Positions 4,840 through 38,522 of a stretch of 43,191 bases of DNA are shown piece after piece. A program made the translations under genes and the position numbers. Source of the DNA: a virus. Lineage: Duplodnaviria; Caudoviricetes. How positions within the stretch are numbered: the stretch's first letter is position 1; each line of letters starts with the position of its first letter. The notes beneath the pieces were generated by a model. The model saw nothing but the letters and a program-made list of their open reading frames with translations, had not been told where the DNA came from and did not search any database. Location: IMG/VR virus record IMGVR_UViG_3300048606_000021, positions 1 through 43,191 of that record. One strand, given 5' to 3'.

Positions 4840-5067
4840 GTGAACACGCACATCAATCTTCTGTTTGAGGCCGCTTCGCCAAGGGCGCGGTTCTTGACCT
4901 CGGCTTCCGGCGAAGCGTTTATCGCGCTCACGATTGGCGGATTCGACGCGATCTTGCCGGGCGCGGATGCCGCAGCCGTGGCCTCTGCGCGGGCCATTGC
5001 GGCGGCGCTGGGCACGGCGGCATGCGCGCTCGAAGCCGAGATTGAGCGGAAAGCGGTGGCCGCATGA
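4840..5067 (+). CDS. Hypothetical protein
   Basis: Fills operon; ATGA-coupled to 5064. Confidence 0.55.
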   Translation: MNTHINLLFEAASPRARFLTSASGEAFIALTIGGFDAILPGADAAAVASARAIAAALGTAACALEAEIERKAVAA

Positions 5068-6683
5068 GCGAACAGACCGCAACCGCCGTAGCCGACGCGC
5101 CGCCAGTGCGCGATCCGCAAGAGCTCGCGCTGATCGACCTGAGTTCTATCAGTTTCCCGCTCTTTCTCACGTCGGCCTCTGAGCCCGATCCGAACGCCGC
5201 GAGCACCAAGATCGTGGACCGGATTCGCGCGCTGACATCGCAGCACAAGCACGCCGCGATCTGTTGCGACTCGGGCCGCTCGTTCCGCGCTGACATCGAT
5301 CCGGCCTACAAGGCGCAGCGCGAAGCACAGCCGGCGGCGTATCACCATCAGGTCGCGCTCGCAAAGGAACGGCTCGAAGCGGACGGCTATCCGGTGTGGG
5401 CCGTCAAGGGCTTCGAGGCTGACGACCTGATCGCGACGGCGACGGCCAGGGCGCTGGCCATGGACGGCTCGGTGCTCATCGTCTCGGCCGACAAAGACCT
5501 ATTGCAGCTCGTGGGGCCGAAGGTGCGCGCGCTCTCCCCGGCGACCAACAAGGACTATGACGAGGCGGCGGTCGTCGCCAAGTTCGGCGTCCAGCCGTCG
5601 CAGATGCGCGATTATCTTGCGCTTGTCGGCGACGCTTCCGACAACATCGTCGGGGCTAAGGGCATTGGGCCAAAGAAGGCCGCCAATCTCTTGCTTCGCT
5701 TTGACAGTATCGCCAACCTGCTCGCGGAGATGAAAGGCGCCGATCTTCATGGGCCGCCTTCCATTGTTACGCCGTCAGAGTTCGTTTCGCTTGCCGAGTT
5801 CAAGGATCGCGCCGAGACGGTCTGCAGGCTGATCACGCTCCGCTTTGACGTGGAGTTGCCATTCGAGGAAGTCGCCGCCGAACGCGCGCCGCGCAATCAG
5901 GCGCCCATGGAGGACGAAGAAATGGAAGCATTGGAAACGCCAACAACCGCCATCGTCGGCGAAGTGTTGCCGCCGCTCGCGGCGCCCGTTCCGCAGAACG
6001 GCCCGGCGCCGGTTGCCGTTACGTCGTCTGGTCCGGTGGTCGCAACGCAGGCCGCGGCGCCGCCGGCCGCGCCCCCGGTCAGCATGGGCCAGGCGCTCGC
6101 CTCTCCCGAAGCGGTTGGCCTCGCGCCGGTCGAGTTCGAGAAACAGCTTGAGCCGCGCTCGCTGGGGCAGGCTGGCAAACTCGCCGAGTACATGCACCGC
6201 GCGGCCATGTTCAAGGGCTACGGCAACGCGCCCGCCGTGCTGTCAACCATCCTGGCGGGCCGGGAGCTTGGCATGCAGGCCATCGCGTCCCTGCGCGGCT
6301 TCCACGTAATCGAGGGCAAACACTCGTTGGCGGCTGACGCCATGCGCGGGCTCGTGCTGCGCTCCGGCGCCGCGAAATACTTCCGGGTCGTGGAGCGCAC
6401 CATCGAGCGCGCGACGTTCGAGACGTGGCGCAAAGACGATCCCGAGTCGATCCGCTTGACCTATACGATCGAAGAGGCGCGCGCCGCCTACGGTTTCGGC
6501 ACCGACGCGAACGAAAAAGCGCTCAACGAGCGTGAGGCGAAGTGGCGCGCAAGTTCCTGGGGCAAGCAGGCGGCTGACATGCTCGCGGCTCGGGCGTCGT
6601 CCAAACTCGCGCGGTTGGTCTACGCGGACATCCTGTTTGGCCTCTATTCGCCGGCCGAGCTTTCCGATCACGAGGCCGCGTAA
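5064..6683 (+). CDS. Fusion of PolA/T5-type 5'-3' exonuclease (FEN) and RecT/Red-beta-like ssDNA annealing domain
   Basis: FEN motifs FR...AYKAQR, GFEADDLIAT, SADKDLLQL, LVGDASDNIVGAKGIGPKKA (H3TH); Pro/Ala linker; C-domain ILAGRELGMQAIASLRGFHVIEGK...TYTIEEARAA...W...DMLAARA resembles phage RecT-like annealases. Confidence 0.8.
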   Translation: MSEQTATAVADAPPVRDPQELALIDLSSISFPLFLTSASEPDPNAASTKIVDRIRALTSQHKHAAICCDSGRSFRADIDPAYKAQREAQPAAYHHQVALAKERLEADGYPVWAVKGFEADDLIATATARALAMDGSVLIVSADKDLLQLVGPKVRALSPATNKDYDEAAVVAKFGVQPSQMRDYLALVGDASDNIVGAKGIGPKKAANLLLRFDSIANLLAEMKGADLHGPPSIVTPSEFVSLAEFKDRAETVCRLITLRFDVELPFEEVAAERAPRNQAPMEDEEMEALETPTTAIVGEVLPPLAAPVPQNGPAPVAVTSSGPVVATQAAAPPAAPPVSMGQALASPEAVGLAPVEFEKQLEPRSLGQAGKLAEYMHRAAMFKGYGNAPAVLSTILAGRELGMQAIASLRGFHVIEGKHSLAADAMRGLVLRSGAAKYFRVVERTIERATFETWRKDDPESIRLTYTIEEARAAYGFGTDANEKALNEREAKWRASSWGKQAADMLAARASSKLARLVYADILFGLYSPAELSDHEAA

Positions 6684-6887
6684 ATGGGCTCGACGCTGCA
6701 ACCTGTCGCCGAACTGGATGACGCGACCGCAATTCGAGTCACTGATGCCGTGCTCCGCTACATGGCTAAGTCAATGGCGATGACCGACGTTTATGAGGAC
6801 CAAGAGCAGAACTGGATATTCGGGCACATGGTAACGCTAGCGCAGAGGCTTGCGCTCGATTTTCAACGGAAGGGCCTTAGCAAATGA
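6684..6887 (+). CDS. Hypothetical protein
   Basis: Abuts previous stop; ATGA-coupled to 6884. Confidence 0.55.
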   Translation: MGSTLQPVAELDDATAIRVTDAVLRYMAKSMAMTDVYEDQEQNWIFGHMVTLAQRLALDFQRKGLSK

Positions 6888-7378
6888 CCGATCACGAATT
6901 GCACATCCTGCGCGCCGCGAAGGCGCTGATCGATACGCTCCTGGGCGCGAGTCCCGCGAGCGACAACGGCAACGCGCCTGAGCGCGCTAACGATCGCGAC
7001 CTTGACAGCAAATGGGGCGATCCCGATGTCAAGTTTCACCCACGCGACTGGAAGGGCGAAGCCTGCAAGGGGCGCCGCATGTCGGAGTGCCCGCCCGAGT
7101 TCCTTGATCTGCTCGCAGGGACGTTCGATTACTTCGCCAAGAAGGCCGACGAAACCGGCGAGACAACCAACGCCGGCAAGCCCGTAGCGCCCTACAAGCG
7201 GAAGGACGCCGCCAGGGCTCGCGGCTGGGCGCATCGGATCCGAGGCGGCTGGCGGCCGGAGACGGTAGACGAGCCGGCGGCTGGTTCACTCGCGGAAGGG
7301 TTCGGCGATCCAGCCGAGCCGTCCGGCTTCGACGTGAGCGGCTTTGAAGAAGTAGACGCGGATTCGATCCCGTTTTAG
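6884..7378 (+). CDS. Protein with SSB-type acidic C-terminal tip
   Basis: Ends GFEEVDADSIPF; lies in recombination module; core is not an obvious OB fold. Confidence 0.55.
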   Translation: MTDHELHILRAAKALIDTLLGASPASDNGNAPERANDRDLDSKWGDPDVKFHPRDWKGEACKGRRMSECPPEFLDLLAGTFDYFAKKADETGETTNAGKPVAPYKRKDAARARGWAHRIRGGWRPETVDEPAAGSLAEGFGDPAEPSGFDVSGFEEVDADSIPF

Positions 7379-7380
7379 CC

Positions 7381-7794
7381 ATGGCGCAATACGTCTTCGC
7401 CGCCGAAGTCTCGGCCGACGCAAAGCCCAAGCTCGATGATTTGCCGCGCTACCGCGAAGCGCTCAAGTCGCTGGCCGGGCAACGGATCGAGCTCGTGCTG
7501 CGCAAGCCAAAGTCTCAGCGCTCGCTCGACATGAACGCCTATTTGCACTCGGACACAGGCCCGTTTCGGCTCCTGGGTGAGCACTTCGGCGAGGACATGA
7601 CCGGGATTAAGTACTCGCTCATGGGCGAGTGTTTCGGCTGGGTCTACTCCAAGGCCGCCGGGCGCGAGGTGCCGATCAAGGCGCATACGTCGGAGATGTC
7701 GGCCGAAGACTCGAAATTCTTTGTCGATTGGGTGATTCCGTGGGCGGCGGCCAACCACGGCGTTTCAATTCCACTGCCAAGGGAAACGCTGTGA
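7381..7794 (+). CDS. NinB/Orf-like recombination mediator
   Basis: RSLDMNAYLH...HTSEMSAEDSKFFVDWVIPWAAANHGVSIP. Confidence 0.7.
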   Translation: MAQYVFAAEVSADAKPKLDDLPRYREALKSLAGQRIELVLRKPKSQRSLDMNAYLHSDTGPFRLLGEHFGEDMTGIKYSLMGECFGWVYSKAAGREVPIKAHTSEMSAEDSKFFVDWVIPWAAANHGVSIPLPRETL

Positions 7795-19079: not shown

Positions 19080-21209
19080 ATGGCCAAAAAGACCGCCGTC
19101 ACGCCCGATCCCAACGAAGCCCTATTGACGCTCGCGCGCAAACGCTTCCGCATGTCTGCGGACGCGGAGGCGACGCTGCGAAAGAATCAGCTTGAAGCCA
19201 AGAAGTTTGCCGGCGGCGAGCATTGGGATCCGGTGGTCAAGGCGCGGCGGGAAGAGGACGGCGATCCCTGCCTGACGTTCGATCTGCTGAAGCCGCAGAT
19301 CAAGCAGATCACGAACCAGCAGCGCGCGATGCGCCCGGCGGTCAACGTTAATCCCGTGGACAATGGGGCCGATGTCGAGACGGCCGAAGTGTTCCAGGGC
19401 ATCATCCGGCATATCGAGGCCGACAGCGACGCGGACGACGCCTACGACCAAGCAGGCAAGGACCAGACCGAGATCGGGCGCGGCTGGTTCAAGTTCACCA
19501 CGGAGTATTGCGACGACGAAACCGGCGACCAGAAGATCAAGATCGAGCGGATCCGTAACCCGTTCAGCGTCTATCCCGATCCCTCGGTCAAGCGCCGCGA
19601 CTACTCCGACGCGAAATTCCTGCTTGAAACGTCGGATTGGCTCCCCGAAGACCTGAAAGAACGGTTCCCGAACGCGAAATTCGTCAACGTCGATGACTTC
19701 GAGGGCATCGGCGACGATGGCGCCAAGTGGATCAACGGCGAGCGGATCCGCGTAGCGCTCTACTGGACCGTGAACACGACGCGGACGCTGTTGGCGCTCG
19801 GCGTCGGCCGTAGCCGGCCGGTCAAAGCGGTCAAGGTGTCGTGCCACACGATCACCGGCCTGGAAGTCTTGGAGTCCTACGAGTGGGCCGGGAAATACAT
19901 CCCCTACGTGCCCGTCATTGGCGAAGAGATCGACCTCGAAGGCAAGGTCGAGTATCGCGGCGTCGTGTGGGGCGCCATGAGCCCGTCACGCGCCTTCGAC
20001 TACATCAAGTCCAAAGCCATCGAAGTGATCGCGCTCACGCCGCTGGCGCCCTACGTTGCCGAAGAGGGCCAGCTCGAAGGCCACGAGGCGATGTGGGAAC
20101 AGGCGAACCGCAAAAAGTTCCCCGTCCTGCAATACAAGCGCGTCGGCCTGTCGGGCCAGCCCGCGCCGCCGCCCCAGCGCAGCTTTGGCGAGCCGCCGGT
20201 CCAGGCATTGAACGCCGAGGCGGCCGAAGCACAGAACCTCGTGCGGATGTCTACGGGGTTCTTCAACCCGCTGGACCGCCCGAAGGATGAGTCCGGCGTG
20301 GCGCTGCGCGAGCGCCGCCAGCAGGGCGAGCACGGCAACAGCGATTATCTCGACGGCCTGGCGCGCGGGATCCGGTTCGGTGGGCGCATCCTGATCGACC
20401 TGATCCCGAAAATCTACGACGTGCCGCGCGTGTTCCGCATTCTCGGGAAGGACAATCAGCCCAAGAGCGTCGTCGTCCACGCCGGCAACGCTGAGGCCGC
20501 GCAGGGCATGGACGGCGAGGGCATCAAGGGGATCTACGACTTGGGCGCGGGCGTCTATGACGTGACCGTGACGGTTGGATCGACCGAAACCGCGCGTCAG
20601 GAGTTCGTGGAGCAGGTGGGCGAGCTTTTCCAGGCGCATCCCGAAGTGTTCAGCATCATCGGGGATCTCTACTTTGATCACATGGACATGCCGGGCGCGA
20701 AACAGATCGCCGAGCGTCTCAAAAAGACGCTGCCCGAGAACTTGCAGGATCAGGATCCGGGATCGCCTGCGTCGTTGCAGATGAAGGCGTCGCAGCTCGG
20801 CCAACAGGTCCAGCAGATGGGCCAGGCGCTCCAAGAGGCGCAGCGCAAGATCGAGACGGACGAAGCCAAGCAGGGCGCGTCGATCAAGATCAAGGAAATG
20901 GATCTCGAGTTCCAGCGCGAAAAGCTGGCCGTGGAGAGCGAAACCAAAATCACGGTCGCCGAACTGAGCGCCAAGATCGACCGTATGGCGCTGTTCCTCG
21001 AAGAACGTGCCCGGCTTGGCGTGCAGACCGAAAGCGAGCGCGCCAGGGGCCATGAGGCCGGCTTGTCGGAGGCGGGGCGCCGTCACGAGGCCGCGATGAG
21101 CACGCAGAGCCACGAGCAGGGCTTGGAGTCTGGCGCCGCCGGTAGCGAGCTGGCGATGGCTCAGGCTGAGCACGCGCAGTCTATCGCGCCGGTTGAAGAG
21201 GCCGCGTAA
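19080..21209 (+). CDS. P22-like portal protein
   Basis: 709 aa; F..GEHWD...PCLTFD, VYPDP, ESGVALRERRQQG, C-terminal coiled-coil barrel. Confidence 0.9.
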   Translation: MAKKTAVTPDPNEALLTLARKRFRMSADAEATLRKNQLEAKKFAGGEHWDPVVKARREEDGDPCLTFDLLKPQIKQITNQQRAMRPAVNVNPVDNGADVETAEVFQGIIRHIEADSDADDAYDQAGKDQTEIGRGWFKFTTEYCDDETGDQKIKIERIRNPFSVYPDPSVKRRDYSDAKFLLETSDWLPEDLKERFPNAKFVNVDDFEGIGDDGAKWINGERIRVALYWTVNTTRTLLALGVGRSRPVKAVKVSCHTITGLEVLESYEWAGKYIPYVPVIGEEIDLEGKVEYRGVVWGAMSPSRAFDYIKSKAIEVIALTPLAPYVAEEGQLEGHEAMWEQANRKKFPVLQYKRVGLSGQPAPPPQRSFGEPPVQALNAEAAEAQNLVRMSTGFFNPLDRPKDESGVALRERRQQGEHGNSDYLDGLARGIRFGGRILIDLIPKIYDVPRVFRILGKDNQPKSVVVHAGNAEAAQGMDGEGIKGIYDLGAGVYDVTVTVGSTETARQEFVEQVGELFQAHPEVFSIIGDLYFDHMDMPGAKQIAERLKKTLPENLQDQDPGSPASLQMKASQLGQQVQQMGQALQEAQRKIETDEAKQGASIKIKEMDLEFQREKLAVESETKITVAELSAKIDRMALFLEERARLGVQTESERARGHEAGLSEAGRRHEAAMSTQSHEQGLESGAAGSELAMAQAEHAQSIAPVEEAA

Positions 21210-37124: not shown

Positions 37125-38522
37125 ATGGCTGATTCGTGGACAGACGTAGCCCCACACCCCCGCGGCGGATTCGTGCGCGCGGTGTCGGAGCCCGGCGCCG
37201 TGCGGATCGAATGGAACGGCGTCTTGCAGTGGCGCATGAAGGTCGAGACTGATTTTCTCCGCTACCTGCGCGTCGTGGTGTCGCCGAGCGGGACCATGGC
37301 CGCGATTGGGCAGAGCGGCGAAGGTTTCGCGCTTCTGGTGATGGCGCAGAGCGTCATGAACATCGGATTGACGCTAGGCATGTTCCCCGTCGCGCTCCGC
37401 TACGAGGGCGAGACGCTGCATACCTACCGCTGTGGCCCTGAAGACTTCGTGCCGCTCTACCTCGATGGCGTCGAGATCTTGAAGATGCACGCGGTGGAGG
37501 GGATCCGTGACGTGCTGGCTGACGGCACGATCATCCACGGCCAGCAGACGGCGGCCGGCGTGTTCGATGGTCACAACTTCGGCCAGTACACACGGAAAGA
37601 CGGTTGGATCGTCGGTCAGTCCGGATTCTCCATCGCGTGCCTCCACGAGGCCACGCACCAATTCTTTACCGCGCGCCGCGGGTCTATGGCTGAGGGCGTC
37701 CATTTCGCGACGCAGGGATCAACCATCGCGGTTGTCGCCTTCACCGAGGCCGGCTCCTTTTTCCAGACGTTCACGCCGCCGTATCCGGTGGACGTGGTAG
37801 CGCCGCCGATTCCGCCCCCTCCCCCTCCAGACGATGAGGTTGACATGAGCTTCGATCCGAAAATGCCCAATCGGCTTGACGTAGTGGCACAGGTGAAGGC
37901 CGCGCACCCTGCGGAATGGGACGCCCGCGAGGACTTGCGCTTCATCAAGCGGCTGGCCTGGACGCTCCATCAGATCGACTCGCGCTTCGGGTTGCTGGGC
38001 AAGCGGCAGACCGATGTCATCGCGGCCGACACAATTACCTTTCTCAATCCGACCGTCGATCCGCAGTTGGCGCCGGAGTTGAGCTGTGAGGCCGCCGACG
38101 TGATTGGCGCCTCGCATACCGCCAACGCGCAGCCAGCATGGAACCCGATCACGGTGCCCGTGCGCGAGGGCGGCGCCGGCGCGAAGTGGATCAAGCCGCA
38201 GCCGGTTGGCAATGAGTTTCCGCCCCCGCCCGTGGACGACGAAGACGAAGACGATCCGCCGCCTGTGGACTTGGCGCCCATCCTGGCGCGGCTCTTGGCG
38301 GCCGAGGCGAAGATTACCGAGCTCCAGCGCGCCGAGGCGGATCTGCTCGATCAGGTGCATCAGCTCGACGGAACGACCGTCAAGGTGGGCCAGCCGATCG
38401 ATCCGGTTGCAGTCGGCGCGGCGGTCGCTGCAGCGCTCGACGGCTACGAGGTCAACGGCAAAACGTCAAACACGTTCGGCCATCAGCACGTCGTCAAGCT
38501 CAACATCACGAGGCGCAAGTGA
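37125..38522 (+). CDS. Multidomain protein with Pro-rich linkers and possible internal start
   Basis: Beta-rich N-domain, PPIPPPPPPDDEVDM, middle domain, PPPP-acidic linker, coiled-coil. Confidence 0.7.
   Translation: MADSWTDVAPHPRGGFVRAVSEPGAVRIEWNGVLQWRMKVETDFLRYLRVVVSPSGTMAAIGQSGEGFALLVMAQSVMNIGLTLGMFPVALRYEGETLHTYRCGPEDFVPLYLDGVEILKMHAVEGIRDVLADGTIIHGQQTAAGVFDGHNFGQYTRKDGWIVGQSGFSIACLHEATHQFFTARRGSMAEGVHFATQGSTIAVVAFTEAGSFFQTFTPPYPVDVVAPPIPPPPPPDDEVDMSFDPKMPNRLDVVAQVKAAHPAEWDAREDLRFIKRLAWTLHQIDSRFGLLGKRQTDVIAADTITFLNPTVDPQLAPELSCEAADVIGASHTANAQPAWNPITVPVREGGAGAKWIKPQPVGNEFPPPPVDDEDEDDPPPVDLAPILARLLAAEAKITELQRAEADLLDQVHQLDGTTVKVGQPIDPVAVGAAVAAALDGYEVNGKTSNTFGHQHVVKLNITRRK

Follow-up and report, generated by a model that had tools for sequence, protein, structure and literature searches.

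An open reading frame at positions 5064–6683 of the genome of an uncultured tailed phage encodes a FEN-type 5′ nuclease and a RecT/Red-beta annealing core as one protein. Comparison with homologues indicates that this FEN–RecT fusion is a large phage family. The window analysed here is the whole stretch of DNA, 43,191 nucleotides long (IMG/VR record IMGVR_UViG_3300048606_000021). An earlier note on this DNA had described a two-domain gene with a FEN/Pol I-type nuclease at the N terminus and a RecT/Red-beta core at the C terminus, and profiles, a structure model and a fold search all bear this out. The gene and its surroundings have the following features:

5064–6683, plus strand: fused FEN 5′-nuclease/RecT-like annealase gene (ORF of 539 aa)
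5124–5888, plus strand: FEN/Pol I-type 5′–3′ nuclease domain, aa 21–275 (Pfam, fold match, conserved carboxylates)
5889–6131, plus strand: linker, acidic and then Pro/Ala-rich, about aa 276–356 (predicted disordered)
5909–5924, plus strand: internal SD GGAGG at 5909–5913, an 8-nt spacer and an in-frame ATG at 5922–5924 (from the sequence)
5922–6683, plus strand: predicted annealase-only product of 253 aa from Met287
6132–6668, plus strand: RecT/Red-beta annealing core, about aa 357–535 (PHROG, profile and fold matches)
6884–7378, plus strand: conserved partner gene, 164 aa, of no named family, in 45 of 80 loci
7381–7794, plus strand: weak match to a NinB/Orf-like recombination mediator, phrog_72 (E 8.7e-07, no single stretch passing)

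The ATG of the fused gene overlaps the stop codon of ORF 4840–5067 (ATGA) and has no SD. A canonical SD is absent from most real gene starts of the window, and GGAGG occurs 18 times on its plus strand (43 kb, 64% GC), in agreement with the claim that GGAGG starts are uncommon here. Positions 162–43,191 carry the gene set of a temperate P22-like podovirus, and profile scans identified an integrase together with portal and coat proteins of the P22 type. Two DNA methyltransferases, a primase-helicase, collagen-repeat proteins and a dGTP diphosphohydrolase-like gene are also encoded. No DNA polymerase was found among the 44 ORFs scanned in the window.

Domain architecture and neighbouring genes

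The nuclease domain matches Pfam 5_3_exonuc_N (PF02739) over aa 21–175 (E 8.8e-31; 107.3 bits against a curated cut-off of 34.3) and 5_3_exonuc (PF01367) over aa 176–275 (E 3e-19; 69.7 bits against a curated cut-off of 40). The FEN/PolA motifs that had been claimed for residues ~1–275 are therefore secure, with both cut-offs passed over aa 21–275. The nuclease model superposes on the FEN structure 9l55 with Z 29.2 and an rmsd of 1.9 over 253 aligned residues, and its nearest solved structures are the Pol I 5′ nuclease, ExoIX, the mycobacterial FEN and T5 FEN. In 120 homologues, residues D25, D69, E118, D120, D121, D143, D145, D190, D193 and K83/R86 are invariant or at least 90% conserved. The active-site carboxylates align with the motifs of the Taq and M. 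smegmatis Pol I enzymes, whereas ExoIX (Xni) has non-acidic residues where the fused nuclease keeps D145, D190 and D193. The full set of active-site carboxylates is intact, and 5′ exonuclease/flap endonuclease activity is predicted.

Foldseek with the whole-protein model listed nuclease matches only, and the C-terminal domain was therefore modelled separately (pLDDT 91). With this model, Foldseek placed Red-beta 7UJL first (E 1.8e-04, TMq 0.53) and LiRecT 7UB2 second. The VIA ranking gave Z 8.5 for 7UJL (rmsd 3.8, 137 aligned), 7.1 for 7UB2 and 6.8 for dsRBD folds. The RecT-like PHROG 4171 matches aa 369–535 (E 3.5e-18), and PHROG 561 matches with E 2.7e-08. Pfam RecT does not match the window protein itself; it matches 50 of 87 relatives of the C-terminal domain (E ≤ 0.01). 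The profile of these relatives, searched against the PDB, returned Red-beta 7UJL (E 1.9e-05) as the sole match at E ≤ 10. The annealase call, originally made by eye, is thus upheld by RecT-like PHROGs and by Red-beta 7UJL in profile, Foldseek and fold superposition. By profile and fold the domain is a RecT/Red-beta-type annealing core, with predicted ATP-independent ssDNA annealing activity.

When three copies of the C-terminal domain were modelled together, they formed a head-to-tail chain with a score of 0.68 against 0.00 for the best control (pLDDT 86; runs agree in at least 96% of contacts), which may mirror likeness to solved filaments. Among solved structures, 20 of 30 homo-pairs attain the mark for self-assembly applied to this chain, as does 1 of 23 single chains.

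The annealing core terminates the protein. In a held-out set of relatives only 0–35 aa extend beyond the core, and its end matches that of Red-beta 1–177. The usual RecT/Red-beta order, an N-terminal annealing domain with a C-terminal interaction region, is not found in the fusion, and the Red-beta-type C-terminal domain, which binds exonuclease and SSB in Red-beta, is absent. Red-beta thus retains a domain in the place where the fusion has only its short extension, and the fusion has a predicted internal start. Stand-alone relatives of the core do have C-terminal extensions. Red-beta 1–177 anneals in vitro, and residues 178–261 bind Exo and probably SSB too (PMC9512822, in part); annealing domains of the Red-beta/Rad52 type are said to be N-terminal and not to suffice for recombination when the C-terminal regions are lacking (PMC9870868), which counts against recombination by the fusion.

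Two genes follow the fusion. The protein encoded at 6884–7378 has an Arg/Trp-rich core and an acidic tail ending in DSIPF, which we take to be an SSB-like tail motif. Of its 45 family members, 29 end in F/W/Y, 7 of those in [IVL]PF. In three other members an IPF lies further inside, with a hydrophobic extension behind it. An atlas search named no family for the protein, and the gene is a likely candidate for a new SSB-like family. The phrog_72 family is present in 15 of 80 loci.

Distribution of the fusion and its annealase partners

Among the other matches listed, 118 of 119 cover at least 93% of the window protein at 46–63% identity, and 141 of 143 new 50%-cluster representatives contain both domains. 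The fusion that had been described from a single gene is therefore conserved in its homologues. In a set made up of 127 loci and the window, 98 carry the fusion, 26 reach the contig end ahead of the C-terminal domain and four differ (L105, L110, L121 and L127); of the metagenome loci, 80 of 126 were covered. L121 is in frameshifted pieces and L105 stops soon after the FEN, both possibly through assembly errors. Five loci come from genome assemblies, of Vicinamibacterales, Thermoanaerobaculia, Dormiibacterota, Myxococcota and Sorangium, the last being a Sak4 fusion. None of the 801 matching cultured phage records covers at least 80% of the fusion. A single-protein scan of viral contigs found no relative, but an alignment-based scan did. 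Naturally split FEN and RecT forms were not demonstrated, and every close locus that was fetched is fused; short C-domain proteins listed on long contigs are at most possible examples.

The nuclease is also found with other annealases. Among 47 matches listed for the nuclease, 13 are fused to Sak4/AAA_24 and 6 to ERF, and selected members were confirmed. The relevant loci and proteins are:

L127:7965–9836, Sorangium sp. So ce131: FEN–Sak4/AAA_24 fusion, with relatives P0235–P0247
P0251, P0252, P0254, P0255, P0256 and P0258: FEN–ERF fusions
L110:4147–5676: FEN fused to phrog_10048, an unnamed domain
L151:3971–4960: stand-alone phrog_10048, after a gene that resembles a PD-(D/E)XK nuclease by eye, with no profile match
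L169:3381–4717: unfused pair, in which a single-strand annealing protein (phrog_3290) directly precedes a stand-alone FEN from the annealase-linked clade; a helicase comes next

At L127 a canonical SSB follows the FEN–Sak4 gene, and an integrase is also there. Because relatives are named from other Sorangium strains, cultured hosts for FEN–Sak4 exist; in a stricter first look, the protein was found among 401 genomes of the phylum in L127's own genome only. The atlas search named no family for the extra domain of L110, and phrog_10048 is likely to be an annealase family without a name.

In the tree, the annealase-linked FENs form one branch (SH-aLRT 97), with four other stand-alone phage FENs and three outgroup rows outside it; long branches are present. 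The ERF-fused FENs nest among the Sak4-fused ones. In AU tests on 40 chosen rows, neither a clade of Sak4 fusions only (p 0.017) nor one of RecT fusions only, without L110 (p 0.0014), was accepted; the groups had been set in knowledge of an earlier tree. The annealase partner appears to be swappable, because one nuclease clade is fused to RecT, Sak4, ERF or an unnamed domain, or stands unfused beside an annealase. The Sak4 and ERF fusions, neither of which is in the window gene, had been missed by the earlier note, and their membership of the same FEN clade is new here. Swaps of annealase family beside RecE are known at the level of genes (PMC2896510, in part); for exchanges at the level of domains, on a FEN that is fused, no published case was found.

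The closest named sequence relatives of the C-terminal domain are gp53 of mycobacteriophage Giles and the RecT-like proteins of PHROG 4171/561. Unlike the fusion, these are stand-alone proteins with C-terminal extensions, encoded near RecE/YqaJ-type exonucleases. Such exonucleases adjoin the stand-alone RecT-core relatives in P1312, phiE131 and Giles, and at the Sak4 locus L164 the annealase also lies beside one.

The linker and its predicted internal start

The linker has a pLDDT below 50 across most of residues 290–353 and cannot be aligned among homologues. The internal start that had been pointed out there agrees with the sequence: GGAGG at 5909–5913 is followed after 8 nt by the in-frame ATG at 5922 (Met287), which would give 253 aa. 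Its placement at the domain boundary is right in that the site lies just after the nuclease, but this is the nuclease end of the linker and not the edge of the annealase; about 70 low-confidence linker residues precede the core in the predicted short product. In the 9961 internal codons of 39 listed genes there are three in-frame SD-plus-start sites, and that of Met287 is the sole ATG. The other two, with GTG, at 20599–20618 (portal) and 37496–37514 (a 465-aa ORF), have long spacing and are probably due to chance. Folding the full-length and the internal start region gave no useful signal (z 0.87 and 0.17).

We examined 80 fused genes at less than 85% identity to each other. A strict site was defined as GGAGG or AGGAG ending 4–12 nt before an in-frame ATG or GTG. 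The zone runs from +4 to +20 codons past the nuclease profile; it was picked after inspection of the data, and the held-out set bears on it at the protein level only. Sites per 1000 codons number 27.9 in the zone, 0.2 in the nuclease, 1.9 in the rest of the linker and 0.3 in the annealase, and out-of-frame sites in the zone 1.5 and 0. Of the 80 genes, 35 have a strict zone site, as compared with 20.3±2.9 after synonymous resampling and 9.6±2.7 after shuffling of codon order (0/2000 each). Against a null of linker codon usage, the counts are 35/80 vs 18.1 at 85% dereplication, 27/60 vs 14.2 at 65% and 16/32 vs 6.8 at 55%. GGAGG alone shows a modest excess (23 vs 16.3, p 0.011). Where the first 25 linker codons permit an SD, it is used in 20/41 cases with a Met following vs 23/95, and in 24/38 vs 24/80; such Met-dependent choice was not seen elsewhere in the gene. 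For comparison, 24 of 78 real full-length starts and 7 of 178 control linker windows have a strict SD. In the held-out set of 129 proteins (14 of 143 were left out for missing or partial domains), 77 have a Met in the fixed zone, vs 74 of 366 control windows.

Mapped onto a tree with 79 labelled rows, the trait requires 19 changes and turns up in distant branches. A strict zone site is found in 5 of 7 truncated or broken loci, one of them a near-copy of a counted gene, and in none of the four distinct loci found via the C-terminal domain. There is no preference for GTG at Val after an SD (7/11 vs 26/54). Unpairedness is 0.54 at internal sites vs 0.42, which may just reflect purine richness. 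An out-of-frame gene in the linker was considered and rejected for the family, since 17 and 19 of 80 genes have the respective other frame open, vs 17.2 and 18.4 when shuffled. The linkers of L015, L021, L024–L028, L075, L076, L082, L086, L096 and L101 share a recurrent acidic-hydrophobic motif, D-I/L-x-E/F-A-M/L-P, within linkers that otherwise cannot be aligned. Acidic-Met-Thr linkers occur in several long-linker Sak4 fusions but are absent from those of Sorangium and from most ERF fusions (proteins; DNA for L127 only).

An in-frame SD and start just after the nuclease is thus, on these statistics, enriched family-wide. That the internal start would belong to the family and not to the window gene alone is newly found here. 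Conservation of the internal SD and ATG holds in part: the 35 genes stand far above several nulls, but a strict site is missing from 45 of 80, and 27 of 80 do not have so much as a 4-mer SD with a start. The earlier worry that the GGAGG might be a by-product of Met-Glu-Asp codons is mostly, though not for every gene, answered, as the SD does not begin in a Met codon in 30 of the 35 genes with a site.

Proposed mechanism and relation to known systems

We consider it reasonably probable that the gene encodes a one-gene, tethered resect-and-anneal recombinase in which the internal start supplies surplus annealase-only subunits. The full-length protein, made via translational coupling, would resect the 5′ end. 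Short subunits would join the annealase cores of the long ones head-to-tail and coat the growing 3′ tail. This coating would ease tail inhibition and non-processivity, as reported for T7 gp6, and give an excess of annealase. The filament would anneal the homologous strand, and the tethered FEN could trim leftover 5′ flaps as well. The covalent tether would do the job of the C-terminal domain that binds exonuclease, and the neighbouring conserved protein, with its SSB-like tail, may substitute for SSB. Two-product synthesis, mixed oligomers and an exonuclease-bearing minority are predictions. In published work the annealase is required in surplus: recombination improves when Red-beta outnumbers Exo and falls in the opposite case (PMC11611040, section 10). 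The FEN-type T7 gp6 is non-processive and inhibited by its own 3′ tail, and is relieved by gp2.5 (PMC4124056, in part). A strict 1:1 fusion would forgo the annealase excess, which the internal start would restore. The internal start is probably the former start of the annealase gene, retained after fusion. The window's own genes mostly lack an SD and SD use in the host is uncertain, which may argue against use of the internal start.

The evidence for the internal start can be read differently if the gene yields nothing but the full-length fusion, with the acidic patch and Met as a protein motif or a decaying relic of the start that the annealase ancestor had, and GGAGG/AGGAG as a product of Glu-rich codons. 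The zone consists of 29–43% Asp/Glu, and the synonymous null already yields 18–20 of 80. The 45 genes without a strict site fit this reading, as does one subfamily whose D-I/L-x-E-A-M-P motif around the Met, sometimes with Leu instead, resembles a protein motif. A linker Met is also absent from the Sak4 fusions of Sorangium (for L127, no start codon is listed in this stretch) and from most ERF fusions. Yet the excess over the synonymous and order nulls survives every dereplication level, SD codons are favoured only ahead of Met and only in the zone, and a relic would not be expected to last in unalignable linkers across lineages 29–60% identical. We regard this reading as unlikely, though deserving of real weight. 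That free annealase arises by proteolysis of the linker or from an internal promoter, instead of through a second initiation site on the long mRNA, is highly improbable. The linker is long and of low confidence, and an internal transcript would share the SD, but proteolysis leaves the SD enrichment unexplained, and a sigma-70 consensus scan, a weak test, found sites at 1866 and 4412 only and none within the gene.

A further alternative concerns the nuclease, which might act mainly after annealing or in replication, trimming flaps or removing primers without resecting ends, the annealase being no more than a tethered companion. The nearest solved relatives listed above point in this direction, T7 gp6 removes primers and is a proposed flap trimmer in recombination (PMC4124056, in part), and the window has a primase-helicase without a polymerase among its scanned ORFs. 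On the other hand, the FEN occupies the slot of the PD-(D/E)XK resecting exonuclease, the stand-alone annealase relatives adjoin RecE/YqaJ-type exonucleases, and the FEN is paired with several unrelated annealases. We judge this alternative rather unlikely as the main role; flap trimming could be an added role of the tethered resect-and-anneal recombinase, with which it is partly compatible.

The fusion shares with lambda Red (Exo and Beta) and Rac RecE and RecT the pairing of a 5′–3′ exonuclease with a RecT/Red-beta annealase. Red/RecET systems, classed as EATR or SynExo recombinases, consist of two proteins with a PD-(D/E)XK exonuclease (PMC11611040), whereas the window gene is one ORF with a FEN fold. 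By analogy the fusion would work like Red/RecET, yet it falls outside the definition by two separate proteins and a PD-(D/E)XK exonuclease. The earlier statement that phage recombination does not use FEN-type nucleases was too strong, as T7 gp6, a flap endonuclease/5′ exonuclease, is needed for T7 recombination (PMC4124056, in part). The T7 pair of gp6 and gp2.5 is similar in that a FEN-type 5′ exonuclease with a role in recombination is stimulated by an ssDNA-binding/annealing protein (PMC4124056 and PMC2896510, both in part). T7, a lytic phage, has separate genes and an annealase with an OB fold, whereas the window phage, which has an integrase, carries a covalently joined RecT core.

Long and shorter products of one gene are known from T7 gene 4, with an N-terminally shorter form (63/56 kDa; PMC2910064, in part), and from E. 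coli infB, clpB and arcB (bioRxiv 10.1101/520783, in part). The fusion would share this one-gene long/short output, and the conserved SD and in-frame start at a domain boundary that mark such genes are seen here statistically; the window case is predicted from such statistics alone. We found no report of nested isoforms for an exonuclease–annealase in the literature searched. No natural exonuclease–annealase fusion was found in the openly accessible literature searched, and a passing mention may exist elsewhere; 'fus' or 'fusion' occurs 0 times in the main texts of PMC8093625, PMC11611040, PMC2896510, PMC12054835 and PMC9870868. Myxococcus RecET is a two-gene system (PMC13454183, in part).

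More tentatively, and with somewhat less than even confidence, we suggest that one-gene phage recombinases form a widespread class that has not been described before, in which a dedicated FEN clade serves as the constant resecting head for interchangeable RecT, Sak4, ERF or phrog_10048 partners. In its RecT branch the retained internal ribosome-binding site would set the annealase:nuclease ratio in mixed filaments, so that a C-terminal domain binding exonuclease or SSB would not be needed, and the new SSB-like protein would be a third part. The coupling of exonuclease and annealase and their ratio are an open question for Red/RecET (PMC11611040 and PMC9512822, both in part), and a naturally fused gene whose internal start can be tuned would make this ratio testable through silent changes. 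The fusion is a compact one-gene candidate for recombineering, with related phages in Acidobacteriota and Myxococcota assemblies, and the analysis points to one annealase family and one SSB-like family that are both probably new.
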